Source: a virus. Taken from it: a DNA stretch of 27,295 nucleotides. Shown one piece after another: positions 1 through 18,227 of this stretch (position 1 is the first letter of the stretch; each line of letters opens with the position of its first letter). The stretch lies in UHGV virus genome UHGV-0068847. One strand, written 5' to 3'. The position numbers were made by a program, and so were the translations under genes. Under the pieces are notes generated by a model. The model did no database searches. It was given only the letters and a program-made list of their open reading frames with translations, and had not been told where the DNA came from.

Positions 1-1149
1 TTACCCCGTTTTTACCCCAACAACGACCCAGTCTTTCCCTCGATCGTCGTTATACTTATCCGTCATTTTTCTGGACTTGTGCCCCAGCAGTTTCTGAGTA
101 TCCAGACCCTGTTCACGATACAGTCGCTCCGATAAAGAACGCTGTTCATGGAAAGTTGGGGGCGTACCGTTTTTCCACTCTAGGCCGCTTTTGTCTCTGG
201 CTTTTTTAAAAGTGGATGTCAGGCAGCTGCTCGACACTCGATCACCTCTATTGGCCTGGGATGTGGTGTGCCTGAAATGGACAAGATATTTACTGACAAC
301 CGCATCCCGACATTTTGAAATAACATCCCTGAGAGTGAGGCCCAGCACCTCGCATCTAAGATCTAACGGAATAGCCAGACGAGAACCTGTTTTTTCCTGC
401 TCGATATGGAGCATGTCATCCCATACATCGGTGAATTTCATATTGCATATATCACCAAGACGCTGACCAGTGATTAGGGCTAATAACATGCCACACTGAA
501 GATAAGGCTGCTGCTGTTCCGCCGTCTTATAAATAACACTCCATTCATCAAAGGAAAGACGCTGCCTTGTTATTCTATTTCTCGGTTGCTTAGTGGCTTG
601 CGCCGGATTGTATCCGGGGGCAACGTGTCCGGCATGTTGCGCCTCTTTAAAAACATCGATGAGCACCATTCTAACTACCTGAGCCATGCGATTGTGGCCT
701 TCGGCTTTAATGGCATCAGTTATTTCTGCAATATCGAGAGCTGAAATATCCTTTAGATGCTGCAGGCCGCAGTGTTCTCTGAATAAACGGACAGGCTTAC
801 CTTTTTGAAGAAAGGAGTTTGGTTTAAGCTCGTTATTTTTAAGCCTTTCCTCCTGAATGCCTATGTATTTATCGAGCCACTCAGTAACCGTAATATCAGT
901 GCGCCTGCCTTTCATCCGTGCCAGGCGATCATTCACGCTCAAGATCTGCCTAGTTCGCTGTTCAGCTATGATTATGTTAGCTTCTGTGGCGACTTGTTTA
1001 GCCTCGGATTCATCGGTTCCAAGGCTGTGAAAACGACCTGAAATAGGATGTTTATATTGCCAATATACCTTACCGGTGCGCTTATCCAATTTGCAGTACA
1101 GGTTAGGGATTGGTATTTTGTGAGTGCGTGGTCTAGCAGCCATCAGCAA
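1..1149 (-). CDS. int: Tyrosine recombinase / phage integrase
   Basis: 382-aa ORF with typical lambda-family integrase layout; stop codon is at 1..3; overlaps the upstream xis-like ORF by 17 nt as in lambda xis-int. Confidence 0.85.
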   Translation of the reverse strand: MLMAARPRTHKIPIPNLYCKLDKRTGKVYWQYKHPISGRFHSLGTDESEAKQVATEANIIIAEQRTRQILSVNDRLARMKGRRTDITVTEWLDKYIGIQEERLKNNELKPNSFLQKGKPVRLFREHCGLQHLKDISALDIAEITDAIKAEGHNRMAQVVRMVLIDVFKEAQHAGHVAPGYNPAQATKQPRNRITRQRLSFDEWSVIYKTAEQQQPYLQCGMLLALITGQRLGDICNMKFTDVWDDMLHIEQEKTGSRLAIPLDLRCEVLGLTLRDVISKCRDAVVSKYLVHFRHTTSQANRGDRVSSSCLTSTFKKARDKSGLEWKNGTPPTFHEQRSLSERLYREQGLDTQKLLGHKSRKMTDKYNDDRGKDWVVVGVKTG

Positions 1150-1369
1150 TTATCCGTTGTAATCTTGGGCTGGCCGAAGTCGGAATTTTCGGTTCTGCAA
1201 GCATTCCTACAAATCGGGCATTACGATCAACCATCCAGCAGCGACCAACCTTAATTGCTGGAGGAGCCATCATTTTTCCCTTTGCATATTTTTTCAATAT
1301 GCGTTCACTTGGTGCTTGCTCTCCAAATTCCTCTTTTGCCCAGTCAAGTAAAGGGATCATTCGCGACAT
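1133..1369 (-). CDS. xis: Excisionase-like protein (Xis-type fold)
   Basis: ORF track 1133..1396; internal ATG at 1369 is preceded by GGAG; product MSRMIPLLDWAKEEF...PPAIKVGRCWMVD resembles the lambda Xis pattern; position immediately upstream of and overlapping int. Confidence 0.65.
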   Translation of the reverse strand: MSRMIPLLDWAKEEFGEQAPSERILKKYAKGKMMAPPAIKVGRCWMVDRNARFVGMLAEPKIPTSASPRLQRIIADGC

Positions 1370-1410
1370 TATTTTCTCCATACAACCCGGCTGCACCCGG
1401 GCTTACAAAA

Positions 1411-1713
1411 TTATAATTTACTGCTGGTTGGCATAAGTGGGACAGCATAGAGCGGACCAGGCGCAACATCGTGATGACGCCATCGGATATCGCAGGTTCT
1501 TTCCTCGTTCGGCGATGACCATGCCACGACGTCAGCCACAGGCTCAGCATCAAACGCCGCAATAGCCCCATCAATCACCTTCACAGCATCAGCCATTGCG
1601 TAGCCGAGATTACCGCCGTCGCTTTGTGCTACTGCTTTGCTGAGTATTTCGTGTATCTGGTGCAGGCGATCGAGTGATACAGGACCGTGCGCCGGGTGGT
1701 TGTTAGTTGTCAT
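1411..1713 (-). CDS. Hypothetical phage protein (100 aa)
   Basis: ORF with AAGGA-type RBS upstream of ATG at 1713; 3-nt gap to the upstream gene, same strand operon. Confidence 0.5.
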   Translation of the reverse strand: MTTNNHPAHGPVSLDRLHQIHEILSKAVAQSDGGNLGYAMADAVKVIDGAIAAFDAEPVADVVAWSSPNEERTCDIRWRHHDVAPGPLYAVPLMPTSSKL

Positions 1714-1716
1714 GGG

Positions 1717-2193
1717 TTAGTCCTTCACAAAGATAATCCAGTGGGTTTTGTCGTTCTTCCCGGTACGCTGACCAATTGCAGGTTTCACATCTGTAAGAGC
1801 CAGAATCTGGCTAACTGGGATTTGTGTTTCGTTCCATTTGAAAATAAGCACGCCGCGTGGCCACAGCACCCGAAACGCTTCTTTGAAACCGGCGCGCAAA
1901 TCAGAACGCCACGTTTTTTTGTTCAATCGCCCGTACTTTTTACCCATCCAGGCAGACTGGCCCACGCGTTCCAGGTGCGGCGGGTCAAACACCACAACCG
2001 GAAAAGAAGAATCAGCGAACGGCAATGAACGAAAGTCGGCAATCAGGTCTGGACTGATAACCAGGCGGCGACCGTCGCACAGTTCGTGCTCTTCGGCGCG
2101 GATATCAGTGAACACGGCGCGGGTGTCCTGCTTGTTGAACCAGAACATGCGGGAGCCACAACACACATCCAAAATTATTTGCTCTGCCATCAT
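1717..2193 (-). CDS. Small DNA methyltransferase (N6-adenine or N4-cytosine type, DPPH motif)
   Basis: Translation contains DVCCGS (motif I-like) and VVFDPPH (motif IV DPP[YH]); start ATG at 2193 overlaps the upstream stop (ATGA) and follows GAAGGGGGA; ORF track extends to 2238. Confidence 0.6.
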   Translation of the reverse strand: MMAEQIILDVCCGSRMFWFNKQDTRAVFTDIRAEEHELCDGRRLVISPDLIADFRSLPFADSSFPVVVFDPPHLERVGQSAWMGKKYGRLNKKTWRSDLRAGFKEAFRVLWPRGVLIFKWNETQIPVSQILALTDVKPAIGQRTGKNDKTHWIIFVKD

Positions 2194-2660
2194 TCCCCCT
2201 TCACGCCAATGCCAGCGGCGCGGATTGCGTCGGCACATTCTTCCAGTGCAAAGTTATATTTATCAGAAACTAGCCCGTAACCTTTCGGGTACGGCGTCGG
2301 CAGCGTCACGGTCCGCGCCACCAGTTCTGCTATGCGCTTCTCTGCAATTTCCAGCTCATCCAGCAGCGCCAGCACAGTGGCAGGGTTAGCGGCGGCGATG
2401 AATTCTGCGTTGCGTTTGGCTGTCTCATCCCAAGCCATGTGGTAATCGTGATCCAACTCTTCGTGAATGCACGCTGCTGTGGAATTGGTCATGTCGAGCA
2501 ATGACTCGCTACCGACGTAAACCGCGTATGAGTGGTATCCAGACGCTCTGTCTTCACCCTCGCCGTATTCACCGTCAGTTTCGACAACATCGGACCACCA
2601 TTCGCCCTGGGTGGCTTTCTCTGCTGTTTGGCGCAGCGCCTGTTTGTTGAGTGCTGTCAT
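2190..2660 (-). CDS. Ead/Ea22-like early protein
   Basis: 156-aa acidic protein with NPATVLALLDELE-type C-terminal region recalled from Ea22-like proteins of lambdoid phages; ATGA-coupled to neighbours. Confidence 0.5.
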   Translation of the reverse strand: MTALNKQALRQTAEKATQGEWWSDVVETDGEYGEGEDRASGYHSYAVYVGSESLLDMTNSTAACIHEELDHDYHMAWDETAKRNAEFIAAANPATVLALLDELEIAEKRIAELVARTVTLPTPYPKGYGLVSDKYNFALEECADAIRAAGIGVKGE

Positions 2661-3733
2661 TGGGCTGCCTCCATTGCGAATGTCCCTGCTGTGATAGCCA
2701 TTGCAAGCCTTTGTGCTGCAGCTTTCTGTGCCGGAACGCTGGCAATTACCGTGGCTCTTTCTTTGCTGGCATCAGCACAAACACCATCCCATGAAGAGAT
2801 AAGGAAGAAGTCTTCCAGCTCGGTCATTGTGGCTTTTGTTACCAGTTCTTCGATCATCTGCACGATGATATGCGCAGGGCGACGCCTCAGTAGTTCCTGG
2901 ACTGCATAGCCAAACGCATTGATCATCACCGCATGGAATTGGATGTAATCTCGCTTGTATTCAGCTGGTGATACACCGTGTCGGATACCATCAATAGCCG
3001 TCAGCTTCAGCCACGCTTCCCAAAGGTCATAAATATCGCCAGTAGACAGCGCATCGTCCCCGTTACCCGCGAATTTAGCAGTTGCATCACCAACGGCCTT
3101 AAAACTAATCCAGAGGTCACTTTTTGCCGGAACCACGCTGTGTTCAAAATCGGTGATCTCGGAGAACACTGAGTGAGTGGAGAGGAATGACACCATTGTC
3201 TGGGCAACCTGATCCCTGCCGTTATAAGCCATATTTATTGCTGCAGAAGGCTTAGATACGTTGTTATTGATATCAGAGAAAAATTGCTGGCGTGTCTTCA
3301 GTGGTAGTTGCAGAGTCATCATCAAAGGTACAAACAGGGGTGTATCGTATTCTCTGCAGAACATGGTTATACCTGCACCACGATGTTGCCCATCAAAAAG
3401 TTTAATTTCTGCGTCCATTGGGAACCGAACAACGCCTACGTTTGTATTGCCGAACTCTTCAAACTCCACATGTGAAGCACAGTTACCAACCAGTGGTGGG
3501 ATGATGAAAGGCTCCTTATTTTCAGCAGCTGCCACTAGGTATTCGTAAAAATTTTTTACGCGTGATTTATTGAGTTCACGCTGAGAACGCTCAAGCGTGT
3601 GTCCGTAATTATCAGATGCCAGTACGCGGGATAGGGTTCGTCCTGGAACGTTCATCAAAAGAATAAGCGTATCCCCCTGCAAGCCGCGAGAGGCAGGGAA
3701 CTCGAAGTAATACTCCATACTCGATTTGCTCAT
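2657..3733 (-). CDS. DGQHR-domain protein (DndB-like)
   Basis: 358-aa ORF containing the literal motif LFDGQHRGAGI; no DndA/C/D/E-like partners anywhere in the window; start overlaps the upstream stop. Confidence 0.65.
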   Translation of the reverse strand: MSKSSMEYYFEFPASRGLQGDTLILLMNVPGRTLSRVLASDNYGHTLERSQRELNKSRVKNFYEYLVAAAENKEPFIIPPLVGNCASHVEFEEFGNTNVGVVRFPMDAEIKLFDGQHRGAGITMFCREYDTPLFVPLMMTLQLPLKTRQQFFSDINNNVSKPSAAINMAYNGRDQVAQTMVSFLSTHSVFSEITDFEHSVVPAKSDLWISFKAVGDATAKFAGNGDDALSTGDIYDLWEAWLKLTAIDGIRHGVSPAEYKRDYIQFHAVMINAFGYAVQELLRRRPAHIIVQMIEELVTKATMTELEDFFLISSWDGVCADASKERATVIASVPAQKAAAQRLAMAITAGTFAMEAAQ

Positions 3734-3984
3734 AGCGCGCTTCCCTGTCTGGCTCTATTCAATAGCTGGTTAAACATCATGGTTAGGCTGTTACTACACC
3801 CAAACGGCATATCGTTAACACGGTATGTTGGAATGCCCTTGCGAACACCAGACTTCACGATCCGGCCTGTGCCATAGAGTTGCGATAATGCTCCGGCGAC
3901 CGCTGGCGTAGTTTTGTTCATACCTTTGGCGATTTCACCGCTGGTGGTATTCGGATGAGCCTGGAGATATTCAAATACGGTCAT
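3730..3984 (-). CDS. Small winged-helix-like DNA-binding protein (84 aa)
   Basis: Short ORF with HTH-like segment TSGEIAKGMNKTTPAVAGALSQLYGTGRIV; ATGA-coupled on both sides. Confidence 0.45.
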   Translation of the reverse strand: MTVFEYLQAHPNTTSGEIAKGMNKTTPAVAGALSQLYGTGRIVKSGVRKGIPTYRVNDMPFGCSNSLTMMFNQLLNRARQGSAL

Positions 3985-4148
3985 GGCGTTTTACCTTTAC
4001 GTTCCTGTTCCAGTTGCACCAGAGACTCTTTTAATGCTGCGAACGTAGTGTCCAGTCTGGTGGCGACTTCGCGCATAAGCGGTGCATGCTTTGGTGGCAA
4101 TTCAGCAACGGAGGCAAAAGCCTCCGCTACGAGTTCTTTTACCTTCAT
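3981..4148 (-). CDS. Small hypothetical protein (55 aa), translationally coupled
   Basis: Not in ORF track (below 60 aa); hand-translated MKVKELVAEAFASVAELPPKHAPLMREVATRLDTTFAALKESLVQLEQERKGKTP; start ATG overlaps the stop of 4145..4711 and its stop overlaps the start of 3730..3984. Confidence 0.35.
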   Translation of the reverse strand: MKVKELVAEAFASVAELPPKHAPLMREVATRLDTTFAALKESLVQLEQERKGKTP

Positions 4149-4684
4149 GCGGCACATTGGCGCTGCTCCATCAACTCATTAAAGCGATTTATGAACATGC
4201 CGTATGACTGGCCTGGACGAACTGGGTTGATGATGAATAGGTCCGTCGGGACAACGCCATTGAGGCATGGCCACACGGAACCTTCGTCAATTTCAAAATC
4301 GCGGCGTTCGCTGGCGAGCATCACCAGATCGGCATATTTCACGGTTGGGTGTTGCTCCATAGGAAGGCCAAATTTCTGGCGAATAGCAGCGTCTACGCGA
4401 GCTTCGATCACCTGGTAATCCGGTAACAGGCGCTTAAGCGGTGAGGGGATATCCTGCAGGTATGCTTCGGCGGCATCATGAAGCAGTGCTTCTAATGCAA
4501 ACTCCTGCGGAACGAGATGGCTGGTTAAAACGCTATGCTGGCCGACGCTGTAAAACTCAGGAAGATGCCCAGCAAAGCGGCAGATATGAGACAACGCGGT
4601 AGCGATATCTTCGATCACGATATCGTCCTGTTGGATATCGAGGTAATTAAAATGTTTGCCGGATAATGTCTGAATGTAGCTCAT
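4145..4684 (-). CDS. HD-domain phosphohydrolase, YfdR-like (CPS-53 prophage type)
   Basis: Motifs ALSHICRFAGH and ALLHDAAEAY (H...HD) in translation; ATG at 4684 preceded by GGAG; ORF track start at 4711 is a GTG. Confidence 0.6.
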   Translation of the reverse strand: MSYIQTLSGKHFNYLDIQQDDIVIEDIATALSHICRFAGHLPEFYSVGQHSVLTSHLVPQEFALEALLHDAAEAYLQDIPSPLKRLLPDYQVIEARVDAAIRQKFGLPMEQHPTVKYADLVMLASERRDFEIDEGSVWPCLNGVVPTDLFIINPVRPGQSYGMFINRFNELMEQRQCAA

Positions 4685-4777
4685 GGTTTTCTCCATATTG
4701 GCGCGCTGCACCGCGCAGATTTTGGTTGCACGAATCCCTCGCCGGTTGGCGATAATTAATGGAATTACGCTTCAATA

Positions 4778-4801
4778 AATCCCCGCGGCGCCGGGGATTT
4801 A
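4778..4801 (-). terminator. Hairpin just downstream of the YfdQ-like gene (possible attenuator or weak terminator)
   Basis: AAATCCCCG-cggcgc-CGGGGATTT inverted repeat about 12 nt past the stop at 4813; the U-tract on the minus strand is weak. Confidence 0.3.
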
Positions 4802-4812
4802 ATGCAGAGCAA

Positions 4813-5640
4813 TTAGGCTTTAAAGTTACCGATGAAAGTTTCCACTGATTCACCGTCGAACTTGCTGATCAGCAAATCGCGGAATTCGTTGGCGATCTCT
4901 TCTTCCTGGGCTTCAAGTTGGATGATGCGCAGAACAAAGCAGGGTTCATCGCTGGTCAGCAGGCTGTTACGCAAGCTAAAGCGGCGTTCGCCCAGACCTT
5001 CATACGGCACACATTTGAACTCGAATGCCACAGGCATTACGTCTTTGCTGCTTGCTTCAACGCTTTGCATCAGGGATTTTTTACCAGCGAAATCACTAGT
5101 TTCATGGTCCTGCTGGGTTGCTTGTTGAATGGTGATACGACGCACTGCCTGAGCCGCCTGGGAAATCTGCATCGTATTACCATCGGCATCAAACGCCAGC
5201 AGGTAATCACTCCAGTCTTCCAGCCATTCAGCAATTTGCTTTTGCTTCAGACGTTGACCATCGATCTGCAGTAACGCGCGGAACGGGGCGGTTTTCTTCA
5301 GGGTGATTGAAGCAACGTTATCGGCGTGACCGGGATTATCCAGGGTGCCGATGTTGAACACTGAACGGGCGGTCATATTGTCAGCGTCAATGAAGCAACG
5401 AGCTGGCTCACTGTCGCTGGCGTAACCTTTAGAATAACGTGCGAAGTCGTCAATACTGGTTGTGGTCATTGCGCCACGAAAGCGGAAACGCTCCAGAGAA
5501 AAGCGCTCAAGGCTTTCAACGCCAGTACCATCTGGCAGCAATGCGGTCGGGCAAGCCAGGCCATGAATATCATTCAGGTGATAACCTGAAAGAACCAGGT
5601 CTTTGACCTGCTTGAAGGTACCGCTGTCTAACTGAGACAT
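4813..5640 (-). CDS. DUF2303-type protein, YfdQ-like
   Basis: 275-aa ORF with AAGGA RBS; length and position next to the HD-domain gene match the yfdP-yfdQ-yfdR arrangement recalled from E. coli CPS-53; similarity not verified by search. Confidence 0.5.
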   Translation of the reverse strand: MSQLDSGTFKQVKDLVLSGYHLNDIHGLACPTALLPDGTGVESLERFSLERFRFRGAMTTTSIDDFARYSKGYASDSEPARCFIDADNMTARSVFNIGTLDNPGHADNVASITLKKTAPFRALLQIDGQRLKQKQIAEWLEDWSDYLLAFDADGNTMQISQAAQAVRRITIQQATQQDHETSDFAGKKSLMQSVEASSKDVMPVAFEFKCVPYEGLGERRFSLRNSLLTSDEPCFVLRIIQLEAQEEEIANEFRDLLISKFDGESVETFIGNFKA

Positions 5641-5696: not shown

Positions 5697-6068
5697 TCAC
5701 TGTGCCGCTTTAAGCTTTCCATCCACCGCGCCAGTGATCCCGAACAGCTGACCCTGATCTTCCTGCAGGATGGTTAGCTTCCCGCCTTTGTTGACCCACA
5801 TCGGGGTTTCGGTTGTGTCCTCTTCGGAGGCTTTACCACGCGGTGTCGGGGTGCTGTAGTTCAGCTTGTGCTTGATCTTCACGCGCTTCTCTTCAACGGA
5901 ATTACCCATACGCTCAAAATCAAATGTGAGGACTACTTTGCCTTTGTTGCCGTTGTTCAGAACGCCAAGCGCGGTAGTATTAAGTGCTGCCGCGATTTTG
6001 TTCATGAACACGCCGGCATCCAGTTCGCCAAGAAAATCTGGCACTACGGTCATGCGGTCATTACTCAT
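5697..6068 (-). CDS. Hypothetical early protein, possibly YfdP-like (123 aa)
   Basis: First gene of the leftward operon; GAGGG RBS before ATG at 6068. Confidence 0.45.
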   Translation of the reverse strand: MSNDRMTVVPDFLGELDAGVFMNKIAAALNTTALGVLNNGNKGKVVLTFDFERMGNSVEEKRVKIKHKLNYSTPTPRGKASEEDTTETPMWVNKGGKLTILQEDQGQLFGITGAVDGKLKAAQ

Positions 6069-6341: not shown

Positions 6342-6400
6342 TAAATGTACCTTTAGTTACCTTTGCGGTCAAGCGAGTAATGTACTTTATGTTACCTTTG
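6342..6400. promoter_or_regulatory. Putative left operator region (two 21-bp repeats)
   Basis: ATGTACCTTTAGTTACCTTTG (~6345-6365) and ATGTACTTTATGTTACCTTTG (~6380-6400); same motif recurs at OR. Confidence 0.5.
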
Positions 6401-6448: not shown

Positions 6449-7108
6449 TTAAATGTTTTGAGTGATTTGTACAACTTTTCCGACAATGCGACAGTTACCA
6501 TCAATTTGGATTGGCTTAAATAACGGATTCAGTGGCATTAGGTATGAGTAGGGGCTATCCCAAACTAATTTTTTAACCGTTGCTTCTGATGTCCCATCCA
6601 ATATAGCAACGACTATTTTCCCATATAGATCATCAAGCTGCCCATAATGGGGCTCGACTATAACAATAGAACCTTCTGGTATAGATGGAAGTCCTTGCGG
6701 GTTAGTCATCGACTCACCGCGGACTACTAACCCAAACGCTTCATCCGATACATTTGCAGTTGTTTGAGTCCAGGAAATCACGTCTGTAAGTCTTGAGCAG
6801 GCATAGCTATCCGTCCATAAACCGGCTTGAACTGCCGATATGATCGGTACAGCTACAGGGGGTTTCAAAAAAGGCACGACGCGCGTGTCGTCAATGGCCT
6901 CATCACCGCTTCCATAGAGTATCCACTCTGGTGTTGTTGATAGAGCCTGAGCCAACTGGTGAAGGTTCTCACCATCAGGCTTTGTCGTGCCGTTTTCCCA
7001 TTTTGTAACCGATACACGGCTTACACCAAGCTTTTTAGCCAGTGCTAATTGGGTTATATCCAGCTGGATTCGTCTGGATCTGATGCGGTCTTTCATCTCT
7101 GTTTTCAT
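6449..7108 (-). CDS. cI: CI-like repressor (HTH plus S24/LexA-type peptidase domain)
   Basis: N-terminal HTH (ITQLALAKKLGVSRVSVTKWENG), C-terminal GESM serine motif and downstream Lys; divergent from the cro-like gene across the operator region. Confidence 0.85.
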   Translation of the reverse strand: MKTEMKDRIRSRRIQLDITQLALAKKLGVSRVSVTKWENGTTKPDGENLHQLAQALSTTPEWILYGSGDEAIDDTRVVPFLKPPVAVPIISAVQAGLWTDSYACSRLTDVISWTQTTANVSDEAFGLVVRGESMTNPQGLPSIPEGSIVIVEPHYGQLDDLYGKIVVAILDGTSEATVKKLVWDSPYSYLMPLNPLFKPIQIDGNCRIVGKVVQITQNI

Positions 7109-8330: not shown

Positions 8331-9186
8331 ATTAACCGGCTACGTATGGGATGGTTGCGCAGCGTCGGGCATGAAGTTGTCTAGTGTCGCGATCATGGCT
8401 CGCCTTGCTGATTTCAGCAGCGATGAAGGTGTGTGCTGGCCGTCCATTGAAACTATTGCTCGCCAGCTTGGCGCAGGGCCGAGCACTATCAGAACGGCAA
8501 TCGCAAAGCTTGAAAAAGATGGCTGGCTCACGCGCACACAGCGCCGTAATGGTAACCGTAATGCTTCGAACGTGTACCGCCTGAATGTGGCGAAACTTCA
8601 GGCTGCCGCATTTTCTCAACTGTCAGATTCTGACACGTCAAAATCTGACGCATCAAAATTTGACGCCTCAAAAACTGACCCGTCGAAATCTGGCAAAAAC
8701 GGCGGTTTTGACCCGTCAGAATCTGGCGGGGATCCGTCAGTAAAATCAACACAAGATCCACAAGTAACTTCAAAACCCTCTTGTCCGGTTGCGGCGCAAC
8801 CCGACCCTGAGATTGTGATTACTGATCAGGCCAGACAGGTTTTGTCTTACCTGAACCAGACAACTGGTTCACGCTATCAGGTATGCAGCACGTCGCTGGA
8901 GAACATTCGTGCCCGTCTGCGGGAACGGTTCACTGTTGATGATCTGTGCCTTGTGGTGGATTACAAAAACGCTGATTGGCGTGATAGCGAGCAGGCTCAA
9001 TATCTCCGTCCGGCAACTCTGTTTATTCCAAAAAACTTCCCTGGTTACCTGCAAAGCGCGACCAAATGGTCTGCCGCTGGGCGACCTGAGCGCGTTAACG
9101 GTAAATGGACGGCTAACTCAGCCAGCCGCGCAAGCTTCCAAAATGTTGACTACTCACTTCCAGAACATTCGGGGTTCCGCTCATGA
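8320..9186 (+). CDS. Replication initiator-like protein (N-terminal HTH, phage conserved C-terminal domain)
   Basis: N-terminal HTH-like region; central low-complexity S/D/K repeat encoded by the iterons; position after cII-like as in lambda O. Confidence 0.55.
   Translation: MSTKLTGYVWDGCAASGMKLSSVAIMARLADFSSDEGVCWPSIETIARQLGAGPSTIRTAIAKLEKDGWLTRTQRRNGNRNASNVYRLNVAKLQAAAFSQLSDSDTSKSDASKFDASKTDPSKSGKNGGFDPSESGGDPSVKSTQDPQVTSKPSCPVAAQPDPEIVITDQARQVLSYLNQTTGSRYQVCSTSLENIRARLRERFTVDDLCLVVDYKNADWRDSEQAQYLRPATLFIPKNFPGYLQSATKWSAAGRPERVNGKWTANSASRASFQNVDYSLPEHSGFRS
8621..8723. repeat. Tandem 15-bp iterons (putative replication origin) inside the initiator gene
   Basis: TGACACGTCAAAATC, TGACGCATCAAAATT, TGACGCCTCAAAAAC, TGACCCGTCGAAATC in tandem at 8631-8690, with degenerate copies at 8621-8630 and 8709-8723. 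Confidence 0.55.
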
Positions 9187-10064
9187 TGCCAAATAAATAT
9201 TGCCAGTCGCTGGCAGAACTGCGCAGTAAACCAGCTCACGAATTGAAAGAAGTTGGCGATCAGTGGCGAACACCGGATCTGCTGTTTTGGGGGATCAACG
9301 CGCTATTTGGTCCATTAGTTCTGGATTTGTTTGCTGACGACGACAACGCGAAATGCCCGGCATGGTACACCGCCGAAGATAACGCGCTGACCCAGGACTG
9401 GTCTGAACGTCTGGCAGAACTGGGTGGCGCAGGTTATGGCAACCCACCGTATAGCCGTTCGCAGTACCACGAGAAACAGGCGATCACTGGTATGACGCAC
9501 ATCATGAAGTACGCAGCAGCCCAGTGCGAGAAGGGCGGTCGCTATGTATTCCTGATAAAAGCCGCGCCAAGTGAAACGTGGTGGCCGGAAGATGCCGATC
9601 ACATTGTATTCATTCGCGGGCGCATTGGGTTCGATCTGCCAGTGTGGTTTGTACCTGCTGACGAAAAACAGAAGCCCACCAGCGCGTTTTTTGCCGGTGC
9701 CATAGCTGTATTCGATAAGTCATGGCGTGGTGAGCGGTTCAGCTATATCAACCGCACAGAACTGGAGGCAAAAGGTCGGGCATTTATGGCGCTGGCTCAA
9801 TTCGCTGTTGGCAAAGAGCCGACAATTGCAATGCGAGCACCCCAGGAGCCAGTCATACCATCGGAAACTGAGTCACGTATCTGGCCTCTCGAGGTTGGTC
9901 TGGTGTTTAACCAGGTGGAAGGCGTTGACGTATTGAGTGAGGCTCAGCAGAACAAGCTGAAAGCCAACATCAATCAACTCTGGCTGGAACGAACGGCCAC
10001 CAGCGAAATTATCACAATTGCGCGTGGTCTTGTCGGCAGCATGCAGGGGGTAACCCATGCGTGA
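9183..10064 (+). CDS. Dam-family DNA N6-adenine methyltransferase
   Basis: NPPY catalytic motif (GYGNPPYSRS) and phage Dam-like N-terminal region (WRTPDLLFWGINALFGP). Confidence 0.8.
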   Translation: MMPNKYCQSLAELRSKPAHELKEVGDQWRTPDLLFWGINALFGPLVLDLFADDDNAKCPAWYTAEDNALTQDWSERLAELGGAGYGNPPYSRSQYHEKQAITGMTHIMKYAAAQCEKGGRYVFLIKAAPSETWWPEDADHIVFIRGRIGFDLPVWFVPADEKQKPTSAFFAGAIAVFDKSWRGERFSYINRTELEAKGRAFMALAQFAVGKEPTIAMRAPQEPVIPSETESRIWPLEVGLVFNQVEGVDVLSEAQQNKLKANINQLWLERTATSEIITIARGLVGSMQGVTHA

Positions 10065-11946
10065 GATTATCGTTGATAACTTTGCTGGTGGCGGTGGCGC
10101 ATCAACGGGTATTGAACTGGCGATCGGACGCAGCGTGGATATTGCGATCAACCACGACGAAAACGCCATTGCGATGCACAAGACGAATCACCCGGAAACA
10201 CTGCATTACTGCGAATCCGTATTTGACGTGGATCCGGTAGCCGCCACCGGAGGTAATCCTGTCGGCCTGGCATGGTTTAGCCCGGACTGCCGACACTTCT
10301 CGAAGGCAAAAGGCGCCAAGCCTGTGAAAAAAGAGATACGCGGTCTGGCCTGGATTGTTCTGCGTTGGGCACTGGCAAAGCGACCGCGCGTGATGATGCT
10401 GGAGAACGTGGAAGAGTTCAAAACGTGGGGACCGCTATTACCAGCTGAGCCACAAAATCCCAATCTGGTGGGGGATGATTTGGCTGCATTTGTTGGCCCA
10501 GTTATACCGCCTTATGATGCGCAGCGTCCGGATCCGGCACGAGCTGGTGAAACATTTGAGGCATTTGTCGGCATGCTATCCACTGGTATTCCTGCTGATC
10601 ACCCGGCACTGGCTGAGGTTTGTGAGTTTCTGTCTATCGAAAGAGGTAGCGAGCAGGCGCAAAAGCTGGTGGATGGGCTTGGATATGATGTTGATTATCG
10701 CGAACTACGCGCGTGTGATTACGGCGCGCCGACGATCCGCAAACGCTTCTTCATGGTTATGCGCTGCGATGGCTGCCCAATCCAGTGGCCTGCAGTTACC
10801 CATGGGGATCCTAAGTCTCTGGAGGTGCAGAGCGGCAGGCTGATGCCATGGCGTACCGCTGCGGAATGTATCGACTGGAATGTTCCGGCCCTGTCCATCT
10901 TCGACCGCAAAAAAACGCTGGCGGAGAACACGCTGAAGCGGATCGCGCGCGGCATACAGCGCTTTGTTATCGAAAGTGCGTCGCCGTTTATCGTGAAGTG
11001 CAATCACACCAGCACCAAAACGAGTTACGACTGTTTCCGTGGTCAGAAGCTGGACGAGCCTTTGCAAACTATTACTAAAACCCACGGTTACGCGTTAGCT
11101 GTTCCACACCTGACAAAATTCCGCACTGGGGCAACCGGGCAGCCCGTTACCGAACCTGTCCCGACGGTAACCGCTGGCACGTCAAAACGCCCGGGTGGGA
11201 ATGGGCATGCACTCGGGATTGTTGAGGCTGCACTGACGCCATTCCTGGCGGGTAATGGTGGTAGTGAATACCAGGCTAAACCGCGCCCGCTGGATAAACC
11301 TGCTCATACCATTATGAAGCAATCCCGCGCCTGTCTTGTTGCGCCAGTGATAGCCCGCCAGTTTGGGGCCAGCGTCGGCCACCGGGCAGACGAACCGAGC
11401 GCCACAATTACAGCTGGTGGTGGAGGTAAATCACAATTGGTGGGCGCGTTTCTGGCTAAACACTACGGCGGTAACTATACGGGACCGGGTGTCAGTATGG
11501 ATGAACCCGCACACTCAGTGACCACTGTCGATCATCATGCGGTTGTTGCCTCTCATTTGGTGAAACTGCGTGGAACATGCCGCGACGGGCAACGTCTTGA
11601 TGTGCCCATGCCAACAATCACCTCTGGTGGCCAACACGTGGGTGAGGTACGCACATTTCTCGAGACGTATTGCGGGGAAAGTGACGATGAATGGCTGGTA
11701 ACGATCGATGGGGTTAAATACCAGATCGTTGATATCGGAATGCGCATGTTGCAGCCGCATGAACTCTACAAAGCGCAGGGCTTCCCGGATGGATACGTTA
11801 TTGATCAGGACTACCGTGGAAATCGCTATGCAAAAGATAAGCAGGTAGCCCGCTGTGGTAATGCGGTACCACCACCATTCGCCAGGGCGCTGGTGGAGGC
11901 AAATCTTCCGGAACTGTGTGCAGTGCAACATCAGGAGGTGGCATGA
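10057..11946 (+). CDS. DNA cytosine-5 methyltransferase (629 aa)
   Basis: Motif I FAGGGG, ENV, QxRxR-like IRKRFF, GNAV; catalytic Cys lies in SPDCRHFS instead of canonical PCQ; start overlaps the Dam stop. Confidence 0.8.
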   Translation: MREIIVDNFAGGGGASTGIELAIGRSVDIAINHDENAIAMHKTNHPETLHYCESVFDVDPVAATGGNPVGLAWFSPDCRHFSKAKGAKPVKKEIRGLAWIVLRWALAKRPRVMMLENVEEFKTWGPLLPAEPQNPNLVGDDLAAFVGPVIPPYDAQRPDPARAGETFEAFVGMLSTGIPADHPALAEVCEFLSIERGSEQAQKLVDGLGYDVDYRELRACDYGAPTIRKRFFMVMRCDGCPIQWPAVTHGDPKSLEVQSGRLMPWRTAAECIDWNVPALSIFDRKKTLAENTLKRIARGIQRFVIESASPFIVKCNHTSTKTSYDCFRGQKLDEPLQTITKTHGYALAVPHLTKFRTGATGQPVTEPVPTVTAGTSKRPGGNGHALGIVEAALTPFLAGNGGSEYQAKPRPLDKPAHTIMKQSRACLVAPVIARQFGASVGHRADEPSATITAGGGGKSQLVGAFLAKHYGGNYTGPGVSMDEPAHSVTTVDHHAVVASHLVKLRGTCRDGQRLDVPMPTITSGGQHVGEVRTFLETYCGESDDEWLVTIDGVKYQIVDIGMRMLQPHELYKAQGFPDGYVIDQDYRGNRYAKDKQVARCGNAVPPPFARALVEANLPELCAVQHQEVA

Positions 11947-12342: not shown

Positions 12343-13029
12343 ATGAGCCAGTTAATCGTGAATGGTGTAGTAACAATGTCCAGCCGTGATATTGCGGATC
12401 TGGTTCAGAGTAAACACAGTGACGTGAAACGCTCGGCTGAGCGTCTTGTTGCTGCGGGAATTTTAACCGCGCCGTTGGCGCAGTTCGATTTTGAGCATAA
12501 CGGCAATGTTTACCAGGAGTATCGTTTTAACAAACGCGACTCTCTGGTGATTGTTGCCAGACTGTCACCAGAATTTACCGCTGCGGTTGTTGATCGGTGG
12601 CAGGAACTGGAAGAAGGGCAGAGTGTCAGTGTTCCCCGCTCATTGCCGGAAGCGCTTCGCCTGGCTGCTGATTTAGCCGAGCAGAAAGAGCAACTGACCA
12701 TCCAGCTGGCAGCTGCGGCGCCAAAAGTGGAGTTTGTTGATCGTTATTGCTCTGCAAAAGGCTCCATGTCATTCCGGCAGGTAGCCAAATTGCTCAACGC
12801 AAAAGAAACTGAGTTCCGCCTGTTCCTTATTGAACGCAATATCCTGTATCGCCTCGGCGGCACACTTACCCCTATGGCGCAGCACATTTCCGCAGGAAGA
12901 TTTGAAGTTAAGACGGGAACATCGAACACATCCAATCACGCATTTAGCCAGACGCGTTTCACTGCCAAGGGAGTACGCTGGATTGGTGGTTTGTGGGCTG
13001 AACATATTGCAGGGGGGCAGGCGGCGTGA
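12343..13029 (+). CDS. Rha-family regulator / KilAC-domain antirepressor-like protein
   Basis: Rha-like N-terminus (LIVNGVVTMSSRDIADLV) and KilAC-like C-terminal region; ATG at 12343 follows GGAG. Confidence 0.6.
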   Translation: MSQLIVNGVVTMSSRDIADLVQSKHSDVKRSAERLVAAGILTAPLAQFDFEHNGNVYQEYRFNKRDSLVIVARLSPEFTAAVVDRWQELEEGQSVSVPRSLPEALRLAADLAEQKEQLTIQLAAAAPKVEFVDRYCSAKGSMSFRQVAKLLNAKETEFRLFLIERNILYRLGGTLTPMAQHISAGRFEVKTGTSNTSNHAFSQTRFTAKGVRWIGGLWAEHIAGGQAA

Positions 13030-14021
13030 GGGCTTTGTTAACTCCTGAAGTAGCCCATCGTATGGGGATTGTGTTGTTTCGTCCCGGCGCGGAACTGATG
13101 CACCTCTTCATGCGTGGTCGCGTTCTGCTCGAACCTGAACCAGAAGAAATGGCGTCATTCAGTACCGGGGCTGTTCCGGCAGCCATTCAGCCGCTGGCTG
13201 ATGATCCGGTAATGCGGCAGGTCTTCGGGAATGAGCGGGTTATTCAGCGTGCCGGTGGGCTTCCTTCCCTTGAGCAGTGGCTGAGTTCTCGGTTTGAATG
13301 CCAGTGGCCACATTCATCGTGGCACGACAAGAACTTCACAACAATGCGGCACCCACCAGGAAGCATTCGCCTGTGCTGGCATTGCGATCACACTTTGTCG
13401 GGGCAGCATACCGAACAGCTTGCAGGTATAGCGGCAGGAAACCTGGTATCCTGGATTCTGGAAGTCATTCGGCGTGATTCTGGTTTTCCCGAGTCGCATA
13501 TCCTGACGCTTCCGGAACTGTGCTGGTGGATGGTCAGAAACGACCTGGCTGATGTTATTCCGGAAAGCGTTGCGCACAAAGGGCTGCGCCTCCCGGATGA
13601 GAACATCCGCTCTGTCATGAGGGAAAGCGACATTGTGCCTTCAGCGTCTGCAACCAGCCTCGTGCAGGAGAAGGCGAAGAAGATCCTCACGCTCTCTGTT
13701 GATCCGGAGTCTCCAGAATCTTTCATGCTCAGGCCAAAGCGACGCCGCTGGATAAATGAGACGTACACCCGCTGGGTTAAAACACAACCCTGTGAGTGTT
13801 GCCGACGGCCAGCAGATGATCCGCACCATATCGTAGGGCACGGTATGGGTGGTACAGCAACAAAAGCCCATGACCTCTTCGTGATCCCTCTGTGCAGAGA
13901 GTGCCACGACGAGTTACACGCCGATGTACCAGCATTCGAGCAGAAGCATGGTACGCAGCTTGAGCTGCTACTGCGTTTTATGGATCGGGCGCTGGCGATC
14001 GGCGTAATTGCGAAAGCTTAA
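13026..14021 (+). CDS. DUF968-type protein with C-terminal Cys/His (HNH-like) motif
   Basis: C-terminal CECCRRPADDPHHIVGHGMGG...CRECHDELH; sits directly upstream of the Q-like gene, as ydfU does next to quuQ in Qin. Confidence 0.55.
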   Translation: MRALLTPEVAHRMGIVLFRPGAELMHLFMRGRVLLEPEPEEMASFSTGAVPAAIQPLADDPVMRQVFGNERVIQRAGGLPSLEQWLSSRFECQWPHSSWHDKNFTTMRHPPGSIRLCWHCDHTLSGQHTEQLAGIAAGNLVSWILEVIRRDSGFPESHILTLPELCWWMVRNDLADVIPESVAHKGLRLPDENIRSVMRESDIVPSASATSLVQEKAKKILTLSVDPESPESFMLRPKRRRWINETYTRWVKTQPCECCRRPADDPHHIVGHGMGGTATKAHDLFVIPLCRECHDELHADVPAFEQKHGTQLELLLRFMDRALAIGVIAKA

Positions 14022-16711: not shown

Positions 16712-16957
16712 TTAACTGCAATGGCTATGACTGCAATTAATTATGGCATCAGCTTTGCTTGATGAGGATGATGGATATTTTTCGGATAAGAATTTCTGTA
16801 TGTCTTCAACAGCTTCGATGCTGACTCTAATATTTGTATGGCCATTGTTTTTTAAATAATTAACTGCTTCATCTATAAGGTTGTTTTCTGATAGAAATTT
16901 GATAACAATGGCAAAGTTATCAACGCCGGTTTCGGTTAAAAGTTCACAGTTAGGCAT
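16712..16957 (-). CDS. Cargo ORF of unknown function (81 aa) with C-terminal CSHSHCS tail
   Basis: GGAG 8 nt upstream of ATG; apparently AT-rich segment between Rz and cos; last gene of a three-ORF minus-strand cluster. Confidence 0.4.
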   Translation of the reverse strand: MPNCELLTETGVDNFAIVIKFLSENNLIDEAVNYLKNNGHTNIRVSIEAVEDIQKFLSEKYPSSSSSKADAIINCSHSHCS

Positions 16958-16962
16958 GGTTG

Positions 16963-17211
16963 TTACTCCAGTGATGTAAATGAGATTTTATTTTGGATTG
17001 TTTTTTTATCAGCGTGGGTGATATGTTTGTATGATTTTTGAGGTTGCCTAAACACAAAAGTTGTATTCAAAGTAATCGAGCTAATTAGGGTGGGCCGCTG
17101 GTTTGGTAAGGTCAGGGGATTAACTCTTATTCTATTACCTTTCTGCGTTGCCATAACCATGGGCAGACCCATCGTAATGGTAGTTTTTGAATAGGCCGCT
17201 AATGAATTCAT
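16963..17211 (-). CDS. Possible small ORF (82 aa) in cargo operon
   Basis: ATGA-coupled to the upstream ORF but no clear RBS; composition is only weakly protein-like. Confidence 0.25.
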   Translation of the reverse strand: MNSLAAYSKTTITMGLPMVMATQKGNRIRVNPLTLPNQRPTLISSITLNTTFVFRQPQKSYKHITHADKKTIQNKISFTSLE

Positions 17212-17456
17212 GGCGCATGGTTTTGGGAGGCGATTTGCAAGCAGGCATCTCGGACTTGTATCGCAAGACGAAGCCCTTCCTGAAATCTTGCTGATGCGTT
17301 GGGATCGTTTGCTGAATTTAGATAGACATTAAAAAGCTGCATGATGGTAACGCTATATGCTTGCTTAATAGCATTTTCAGTAATTGTTTCGTCCATCGAG
17401 AATCTCCTCGGTAGCATAGATGACAGGTTTACTTCCGTCTTACCATAGGTCATCAA
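17208..17456 (-). CDS. Cargo ORF of unknown function (82 aa)
   Basis: First ORF of the minus-strand cluster; TTG/ATG start pair; plausible composition. Confidence 0.35.
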   Translation of the reverse strand: MMTYGKTEVNLSSMLPRRFSMDETITENAIKQAYSVTIMQLFNVYLNSANDPNASARFQEGLRLAIQVRDACLQIASQNHAP

Positions 17457-17482
17457 TGGGATTACTTTAATAGGAAAGAAGC

Positions 17483-17767
17483 ATGAGCAAGCCGGACTGG
17501 GAGGTCATCGGGGCGGCGTACTGTGCCGGAGTGATGGCCCTCCGTGAAATTACATCGCAGCACGACATTAGTGAAGGGACAATGCAGAACCATACTAACT
17601 ACTGAGTGAGTGAAACAGACAATATCATCGGTAAGGATGATGGCAATAGCCCCCGACTTACTGACGCCGCTAAACGGGATTATTTCACCCTCAGAGAGCG
17701 AATCAGCACCATCACCGGGCAAGTGAGTTACTTACAGGATTACATCAGGCAGCAATGTTTGAAGTGA
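17483..17767 (+). pseudogene. Chimeric remnant: 40-codon HTH-like fragment, in-frame TGA, then 53-codon Rz C-terminal homolog
   Basis: 17483..17605 encodes MSKPDWEVIGAAYCAGVMALREITSQHDISEGTMQNHTNY after an AGGA RBS; 17606..17767 continues in the same frame and encodes ...[39 protein letters not shown], a divergent second copy of the Rz 3' end. Confidence 0.5.
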
Positions 17768-17801
17768 ATGGCCGCTAGACTTAGCCAGCCATTTTAAAGA
17801 G

Positions 17802-18227
17802 TTAACCAACGGTTAATGTGGAAAGCAAATGCGAAGTTTCCCCAGAGCAGTTAACAGTGGTTTCGTTGTAAGGGAATTCACCCGTATACTCGCTATTTGC
17901 AGGGGGAGTCATTTTGTTAATCAATGCAGCTTCTGCGCGCACCCGATCATCTTTTCCAGTAATAGTAGCGACGGAATAGCAGAGAGTCTCACCGACCATT
18001 AAATGTTCATTCCAGTCACCCAGCCTGTCGTGCGTGGCCACACGGGATCGGACGTTCGATGATTCGCCGATATAAATCAACTTACGAATTTCGAGTGTTG
18101 TCTTGGAGCCATTAGTAACAGCTTTGCATGCGTATACGCAGTAGATTCCTGACTGATCTGGAACGCCACTCTTATTGGCTTCACGCCAATACCCATCAAA
18201 TTGCAGATTAATTGTTTTACCAGTCAT
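17802..18227 (-). CDS. Standalone GIY-YIG nuclease-domain protein (141 aa)
   Basis: SGIYCVY ... LIYIGESSNVRSRVATH ... RVRAEAALINKMTPPAN matches the GIY / YIG / Arg / Glu...Asn motif series. Confidence 0.55.
   Translation of the reverse strand: MTGKTINLQFDGYWREANKSGVPDQSGIYCVYACKAVTNGSKTTLEIRKLIYIGESSNVRSRVATHDRLGDWNEHLMVGETLCYSVATITGKDDRVRAEAALINKMTPPANSEYTGEFPYNETTVNCSGETSHLLSTLTVG

Follow-up and report, generated by a model that had tools for sequence, protein, structure and literature searches.

A protein of 158 amino acids (aa), encoded on the minus strand at positions 1717 to 2193 of UHGV virus genome UHGV-0068847, is a class I SAM-dependent methyltransferase of the phage family PHROG 954. 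Its gene is genuine and under purifying selection, the fold and the catalytic and SAM-binding motifs are conserved, the family is spread across phages, and, in other phages, the enzyme is positionally equivalent to a Dam-type DNA methyltransferase. We lean towards the reading that it is a minimal, self-contained amino-methyltransferase that methylates phage DNA against host restriction. Throughout, "the window" denotes the whole stretch of 27,295 nucleotides that was analyzed.

The methyltransferase gene and the leftward early operon

The window covers the left and central portions of a lambdoid prophage from an enterobacterium, and the proteins closest to the methyltransferase come from Salmonella and Citrobacter. 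A minus-strand open reading frame (ORF) extends over positions 1717-2238. We assigned the start to the ATG at 2193 because it overlaps the TGA stop codon of the upstream gene (ATGA), is preceded by a Shine-Dalgarno-like purine-rich stretch, GAAGGGGGAA, and agrees with the N-termini of homologues. The resulting coding sequence (1717..2193, minus strand) coincides exactly with the coordinates given in the original prediction of a small DPPH-motif methyltransferase, and the DPPH motif occupies residues 70-73 of the 158-aa product.

The distal end of the operon consists of genes for an integrase (1-1149, minus strand; phrog_7244 at 2.7e-107) and an excisionase, xis (1133-1396, minus strand; phrog_629 at 2.2e-33). 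The methyltransferase had been described as lying next to int; it is close to int but not adjacent, being the third gene from it, with xis and a 100-aa ORF (1411..1713, minus strand) in between. The latter begins 3 nt past the methyltransferase stop codon. On the upstream side, an Ead/Ea22-like gene (2190..2660, minus strand; PF13935 at 1.3e-18) ends with the TGA that overlaps the methyltransferase ATG, and this overlap suggests that the two genes may be translationally coupled. Further upstream on the minus strand are a DndB-like gene (2657-3733; DGQHR, PF14072 at 4.8e-47; phrog_7901), a small MarR-like gene (3730-3984), a 58-aa ORF (3981-4157), an HD-type, YfdR-like 5'-deoxynucleotidase (4145-4711), a YfdQ-like DUF2303 gene (4813-5640), a 123-aa ORF (5697-6068), and a cI-like repressor (6449-7108; phrog_4 at 7.4e-52).

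This leftward early operon is tightly packed, and the methyltransferase has no promoter-like site of its own. In a consensus scan, the only promoter-like site upstream on the methyltransferase strand and outside the repressor gene was a PL-like sigma-70 candidate (6344..6372, minus strand; TTGACC, 17-nt spacer, TACATT) located between the cI-like repressor and the first leftward gene. Transcription of the methyltransferase is presumed to start from this candidate. Given that the operon is the early-left operon controlled by the repressor and that the gene lacks its own promoter-like site, the methyltransferase should be silent in the lysogen. An Rfam scan of the window yielded no matches.

The plus strand carries genes resembling cII and the replication gene O, a Dam-type and a C5 methyltransferase, RusA, an antirepressor, a DUF968/HNH gene (13026-14021), Q, the lysis genes, and genes for terminase, the portal, and the head. 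Five small minus-strand ORFs (81, 82, 82, 86, and 141 aa) at 16712-18227 separate the lysis genes from terminase and run against the late operon; no PHROG matches the 141-aa ORF, and the set looks like a moron or cargo island. Positions 1-3 of the window are exactly the integrase stop codon, so that the attachment site and the host flank are outside the window.

Several features of the region upstream of the methyltransferase are of separate interest. The DUF2303 and HD-type 5'-deoxynucleotidase genes form a pair (4145-5640, minus strand), and the order DUF2303, yfdR, hypothetical gene, methyltransferase recurs in a prophage remnant of E. coli O157:H7 (L087, 4555-6446), where the methyltransferase has an internal stop. 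The DndB-like gene is two genes upstream of the methyltransferase. We considered DndB, a ParB-like protein, as a recognition partner and dropped this candidate, the DndB-like gene being absent from all 80 related IMG/VR loci; in a phage it may serve, for example, counter-defense or regulation. One 266-aa protein (P0011, from a 5961-bp contig) is a chimera: it starts with the N-terminal 133 residues of the DndB-like protein and continues, in frame, with the methyltransferase from its residue 16 onwards. The joint falls at a peptide common to both proteins, (GIT)MF / (SR)MFW, and the chimera appears to be a deletion that took out the Ead/Ea22 gene. It shows that the DndB-Ea22-methyltransferase arrangement exists elsewhere too.

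Conserved motifs, predicted structure, and selection

We aligned the protein with 97 diverse homologues (41-82% identity; alignment A1). Motif I, the SAM-binding loop LDVCCGS, comprises residues 8-14 (2152..2172, minus strand); in this motif D9 is invariant, and L8, C12, and G13 are at least 90% conserved. Motif IV, DPPH, is the presumed catalytic loop for exocyclic amino methylation and corresponds to positions 1975..1986 on the minus strand (plus strand gtgcggcgggtc, reverse complement GAC CCG CCG CAC). Both of its prolines, P71 and P72, are invariant, and the flanking D70 and H73 reach a conservation of at least 90%. Invariant among the 97 homologues, too, is D30, at the end of strand 2, and D49, D53, E105, R108, K119, and W120 are invariant or nearly so.

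The AlphaFold2 (AF2) model (pLDDT 96, pTM 0.90) shows alternating strands and a reduced Rossmann-type methyltransferase fold in which helices are sparse around strands 1-3. The Rossmann-like fold, the glycine-containing motif I loop, and the acidic residue of strand 2 are those of class I SAM-dependent methyltransferases, and DPPH directly follows the fourth strand (residues 64-70), as motif IV does in enzymes that methylate exocyclic amino groups. Motif I precedes motif IV, an order shared with gamma-class DNA enzymes and with small amino-methyltransferases that act on RNA or protein. The catalytic fold takes up all 158 residues, leaving none for a target-recognition domain.

The window copy has an intact frame with every invariant residue present, and its pairwise dN/dS, computed against the 18 relatives whose dS is unsaturated, is 0.07 at the median (range 0.03-0.10). 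A word-indexed search retrieved 4107 homologues, and an exhaustive HMMER scan 1989 clusters at 50% identity. This abundance of relatives, together with the low dN/dS and the pLDDT of 96, shows that the gene is not a chance ORF.

Distribution and genomic context of PHROG 954

By tblastn, 253 phage records carry the protein. They represent phages of many bacterial phyla (Proteobacteria, Firmicutes, Actinobacteria, and Bacteroidetes) and one archaeal virus, the haloarchaeal HSTV-1. Hosts include Streptococcus, Vibrio, Acinetobacter, Porphyromonas, Listeria (A118 ORF50), Gordonia, Enterococcus, Lactobacillus, Staphylococcus pseudintermedius, and Salmonella. Most members, in all phyla, are well-conserved proteins of about 150-170 aa. 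Of 5426 complete E. coli genomes, about 900 proved to have a copy in a distant blastn search; a single genome has as many as five, and the copies occupy 958 chromosomal places against 7 on plasmids. The O157:H7 copy inspected and one other E. coli copy are pseudogenes with a frameshift or stop.

In the annotated phages that we inspected, which infect Listeria, Streptococcus, Gordonia, Pectobacterium, and a haloarchaeon, the gene is found among replication and recombination genes. It follows a DnaD-like loader in A118, SSB in a pneumophage, and the MCM helicase in HSTV-1, and it abuts a large DNA methyltransferase in ZF40 (gp20 then gp21) and Nymphadora (gp66 then gp67). In Salmonella phage Oslo, the gene is in the ea region by int, as in the window. 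Among 80 IMG/VR loci, no neighbor is conserved: the commonest neighboring family occurs in 19, and the commonest immediate neighbor in 8. The enzyme thus seems to need no dedicated partner.

Listeria A118 ORF50, Pectobacterium ZF40 gp20, Salmonella vB_SosS_Oslo AMBK_36, and Gordonia Nymphadora gp67 share 45-90% identity with the window protein over 96-100% of its length, along with the DPPH motif and the small size. Nothing essential sets the window copy apart; it differs from other members in its int-proximal location, shared with Oslo, as opposed to the replication or nin module. Proteins 97% identical to it are already present in public databases under a generic name.

The window contains two other methyltransferases that, as originally proposed, form a Dam/Dcm pair separate from the small gene: a Dam-type N6-adenine DNA methyltransferase with an NPPY motif and a C-terminal module (9183..10064, plus strand; PF05869 at 1.2e-43) and a C5 cytosine DNA methyltransferase (10057..11946, plus strand; PF00145 at 3.4e-20). 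At 629 aa, the C5 enzyme is unusually long, and its PF00145 match is split into two stretches, which implies that the conserved halves are separated by a large insertion or a variable region. No restriction endonuclease was recognized among the ORFs scanned in the window, which ends in head genes and so covers only part of the prophage; for the window, this bears out the earlier statement that the methyltransferases lack cognate restriction enzymes. The immediate neighbors of the small gene are the Ead/Ea22-like gene and the 100-aa ORF, with no adjacent endonuclease; the DUF968/HNH gene is a common gene of the lambdoid nin region.

Family assignment and likely substrate

The protein matches the PHROG 954 profile over its full length (E 7.6e-85; residues 1-157 against profile positions 48-201 of 229). 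In PHROGs v4, phrog_954 is labeled "DNA methyltransferase", which, as in the phage records, is annotation, not experiment; the same applies to the note in the A118 record that ORF50 "methylates cytosine residues". At NCBI, the family goes by no more specific name than "class I SAM-dependent methyltransferase". We surveyed the literature on the DPPH motif, on small phage methyltransferases and those devoid of a recognition domain, and on A118-like methylomes, and found no experimental characterization of any PHROG 954 member.

Among Pfam families, the generic Methyltransf_11 alone reached the threshold (21.4 bits against a cut-off of 21.2), Methyltransf_25 was a sub-threshold match, and an NCBIfam scan returned nothing significant. 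The protein matches none of the DNA-methylase families PF01555, PF02384, PF02086, and PF05869. The profile search that had been suggested for determining the methyltransferase class thus placed the protein in PHROG 954 and, at threshold, in Methyltransf_11, but in no curated DNA-methylase family; the count of three methyltransferase genes holds, whereas identification of the third as a DNA methyltransferase goes beyond its generic Pfam match. The protein likewise contains no target-recognition domain or recognizable DNA-binding element. N-terminal extensions of distant homologues, considered as a possible DNA-binding domain, were set aside as heterogeneous and likely to be start-site or fusion noise; extensions at the C-terminus of relatives vary as well.

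When the 97 relatives were scanned singly, 33 matched N6_N4_Mtase (PF01555), all weakly and below threshold (best E 3e-4), making it the commonest specific Pfam family besides the generic Methyltransf_11 and Methyltransf_25; RsmD-like and UPF0020 had four matches each. The resemblance to the beta class represented by PF01555 is confined to motif IV and the following segment, and the alignment with SpSL1_16, a DPPY protein, covers the same motif IV region. The motif order of the beta class, however, is permuted (IV before I), and the window protein itself has no PF01555 match. SpSL1_16, the "N6-adenine methylase" of a pneumophage, was also evaluated as a potential family member and rejected as an unrelated beta-class DPPY enzyme; m6A was not detectable in that case (PMC6755750).

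Searches of PDB sequences with the single protein and with the 97-sequence profile identified no solved relative, all matches being generic or insignificant; the best was PH0226 (E 7e-6, over the SAM-binding half), and the tRNA m2G10 enzyme Trm11 gave a weak profile match (E 0.2). A Foldseek search of the AF2 model against PDB gave probability 1.0 to many class I methyltransferases, the nearest at TM 0.5-0.6 only. With similar E-values, the neighbors include PH0226 and nucleomethylin, whose substrates are unknown, the RNA enzymes Bud23, Trm11, TrmM, and Trm9, the protein methyltransferase KMT9, and the DNA methyltransferase M.TaqI. Because these neighbors span DNA, RNA, and protein methyltransferases, the structural comparison does not discriminate the substrate. 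In BFVD, the sole close structural relative is a member of the family.

With M.TaqI and the gamma class (Foldseek E 2e-4, TM 0.53; sequence identity 18-20%), the window protein shares the class I Rossmann fold, the order of motifs I and IV, and a motif IV of the (D/N)PP(aromatic) type. It differs from M.TaqI in that the large C-terminal DNA-recognition domain is wholly missing, the tyrosine of motif IV is replaced by histidine, and the helices around strands 1-3 are predicted to be reduced. Histidine in the fourth position of motif IV is atypical of characterized DNA enzymes, in which this residue is usually Tyr, Phe, or Trp. Aspartate in the first position speaks for adenine N6, or for guanine N2 in the case of RNA enzymes, rather than for cytosine N4, with which serine is usual.

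RNA or protein is the typical substrate of small stand-alone enzymes that have a (D/N)PP(Y/F) motif but lack a recognition domain, and the family could, conceivably, be an amino-methyltransferase of this kind that acts in early infection on rRNA or tRNA (guanine N2 or adenine N6) or on protein glutamine or lysine, for instance, blunting a tRNA- or ribosome-directed defense. The structural neighbors Trm11, TrmM, Bud23, KMT9, and nucleomethylin, the weak profile match to Trm11, and the few relatives with weak matches to RsmD-like and UPF0020 are compatible with such an activity, and Trm11, TrmM/TrmN6, RsmD, and KMT9/N6AMT1 resemble the window protein in size, in lacking a large recognition domain, and in their (D/N)PP(aromatic) motif (Foldseek E ~1e-4). 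Nevertheless, we consider an RNA or protein substrate unlikely. There is no significant match to these families, the structural matches are no better than that to M.TaqI, and matches to PF01555 outnumbered those to the RNA families about eightfold. Unlike those enzymes, the PHROG 954 proteins are phage-borne and consistently encoded in DNA replication modules, beside DNA methyltransferases, and in a position that is swapped with Dam upstream of the same C5 enzyme (see below). A conserved Trm112-like partner was not found in the 80 loci.

DNA methylation by an enzyme this small has a precedent. PamA of a S. aureus prophage, a 141-aa protein with NPPY at residues 64-67, methylates GATC, as judged from DpnI sensitivity and point mutants (PMC11042277). 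Thus, a phage methyltransferase of about 150 aa without a separate recognition domain can be an active, sequence-specific DNA enzyme. We tentatively assigned PamA to PF05869, by its size and the position of NPPY.

A C-terminal module shared with Dam and a common slot upstream of the C5 methyltransferase

Of the best 120 homologue clusters, 32 consist of proteins of 246-255 aa, compared to about 158 aa for the window protein, and 31 of these 32 carry a C-terminal extension of about 90 aa. In the long variants (248 aa), the extension matches phrog_16025 (4.6e-50) and is homologous to residues 222-288 of the window Dam (BLASTP, 37% identity, E 3e-13), with 11 invariant positions in the module alignment (A2). 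In Dam, the module comprises residues 222-293 (9846..10061, plus strand), and AF2 modeling yielded a three-helix bundle (pLDDT 81). This fold has no significant structural match in PDB, which leaves a DNA-binding role for the module unsupported. A database search with the 79-aa module retrieved 41 short fragments, mostly of Dam-type proteins. The catalytic domains of PHROG 954 and the window Dam (PF05869) are unrelated (hhalign probability 0.4%), whereas the extensions are homologous; hence, two distinct methyltransferase cores carry one and the same accessory module.

In the window, the Dam stop codon overlaps the ATG of the C5 methyltransferase. In eight IMG/VR loci (L014, L034, L035, L036, L040, L041, L043, and L044), the gene directly after the small methyltransferase with the module encodes a C5 methyltransferase that shares 64-74% identity with that of the window. 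The module ends exactly at the start of the homologous C5 gene, whether the core is Dam-type or PHROG 954. The shared module and slot indicate that a cassette consisting of an N-methyltransferase core, the module, and the C5 methyltransferase can have either the PHROG 954 enzyme or the Dam domain in the core position. PHROG 954 enzymes thus resemble the phage Dam family PF05869 in being small orphan phage enzymes that, in different phages, occupy the same slot upstream of the C5 gene with the same module, but differ in their unrelated catalytic domains and in having DPPH in place of NPPY. The common slot and module are the strongest argument, albeit an indirect one, that the PHROG 954 enzyme performs Dam-like DNA methylation.

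A further cassette locus, L030, encodes a small methyltransferase 98% identical to that of the window. In this locus, an ORF lies between the enzyme and a module remnant, and the N-terminus of this ORF matches that of the 100-aa ORF of the window. This arrangement suggests that the window methyltransferase and the adjoining ORF came from such a cassette and moved, as a block, to the int-proximal arm. The module might contact DNA, contact the C5 enzyme, or be a mere recombination joint, and its function could be tied to the C5 gene that follows it instead of the enzyme that precedes it.

The presence of the module in a quarter of the close homologue clusters raises the question of whether the small enzyme is a DNA-methylating catalytic subunit that needs a partner, be it the three-helix module, the C5 enzyme, or another early protein, so that the module-less window copy would be weak or inactive. 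The window and L030 copies indeed look like derivatives split from the module, and E. coli copies are sometimes pseudogenes. However, the well-conserved members of about 150-170 aa that make up most of the family lack the module, the dN/dS of 0.03-0.10 between the window copy and its relatives is low, no neighbor is conserved in the 80 loci, and the module fold has no significant structural match. We regard dependence on a partner as quite improbable.

The common module and slot weigh also on the chance, which we rate as low, that the protein is a small-molecule methyltransferase of the Methyltransf_11 type that modifies a metabolite, nucleotide, or signaling molecule. This reading could draw on the two generic families, Methyltransf_11 and Methyltransf_25, being the only ones that reach Pfam significance, on the name UbiE-like that JGI gives to some members, and on the 5'-deoxynucleotidase encoded a few genes away in both the window and the O157:H7 prophage remnant. 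Against it, a nucleotidase is encoded within 4 kb of the methyltransferase in only 10 of the 80 loci, the module and slot are common to PHROG 954 and Dam, and DPPH after strand 4 is nearly invariant. A DPPH-type motif IV in this place is the signature of nucleobase or amide nitrogen methylation and is not found in UbiE-like enzymes. Finally, a decaying, non-functional remnant, for which the frameshifted or stop-containing copies in E. coli prophage remnants could speak, is hardly credible for the window gene, with its intact frame, full complement of invariant residues, strong purifying selection, and apparent translational coupling within the operon.

Predicted role and implications

For a self-contained enzyme that methylates phage DNA, we infer early expression, DNA as the substrate, the base that is modified, and the role in anti-restriction as follows. 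The gene would be transcribed within the leftward early operon upon prophage induction or infection. The protein would bind SAM through motif I (LDxCCG, with D9), the acidic D30 at the end of strand 2, and D53; the DPPH loop after strand 4 would hold a flipped-out base, and the methyl group would be transferred to its exocyclic amino group. The target would most likely be adenine N6, and less likely cytosine N4, in replicating phage DNA. As the enzyme has no target-recognition domain, its sequence specificity may be short or relaxed. The modification would be an extra protective mark against host restriction, on top of the Dam-type and C5 marks. The broad anti-restriction self-protection put forward in the original prediction is, accordingly, to be read as a plausible interpretation; the observation behind that prediction is confirmed, and its interpretation is partly supported.

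Taken alone, the window gene is another candidate orphan phage methyltransferase, an ordinary member of a catalogued family. Its value lies in that family, which is very widespread and unusually small and for which we found no characterized member. The alternation with a Dam-type domain ahead of the same module and C5 enzyme provides a concrete handle on its role. It is conceivable, if doubtful, that PHROG 954 enzymes are the smallest natural DNA methyltransferases, with relaxed or no specificity, or else methylate host RNA, protein, or nucleotides as a counter-defense that has not been described. With so little specificity, one tiny gene could cover phage DNA in m6A or m4C and overcome many restriction systems at once. 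If the enzymes act on DNA, the family would offer a compact tool and be a common but overlooked factor in the escape of phages from restriction. Under either reading, a function would be gained for a family present in hundreds of phages and in about one in six complete E. coli genomes.
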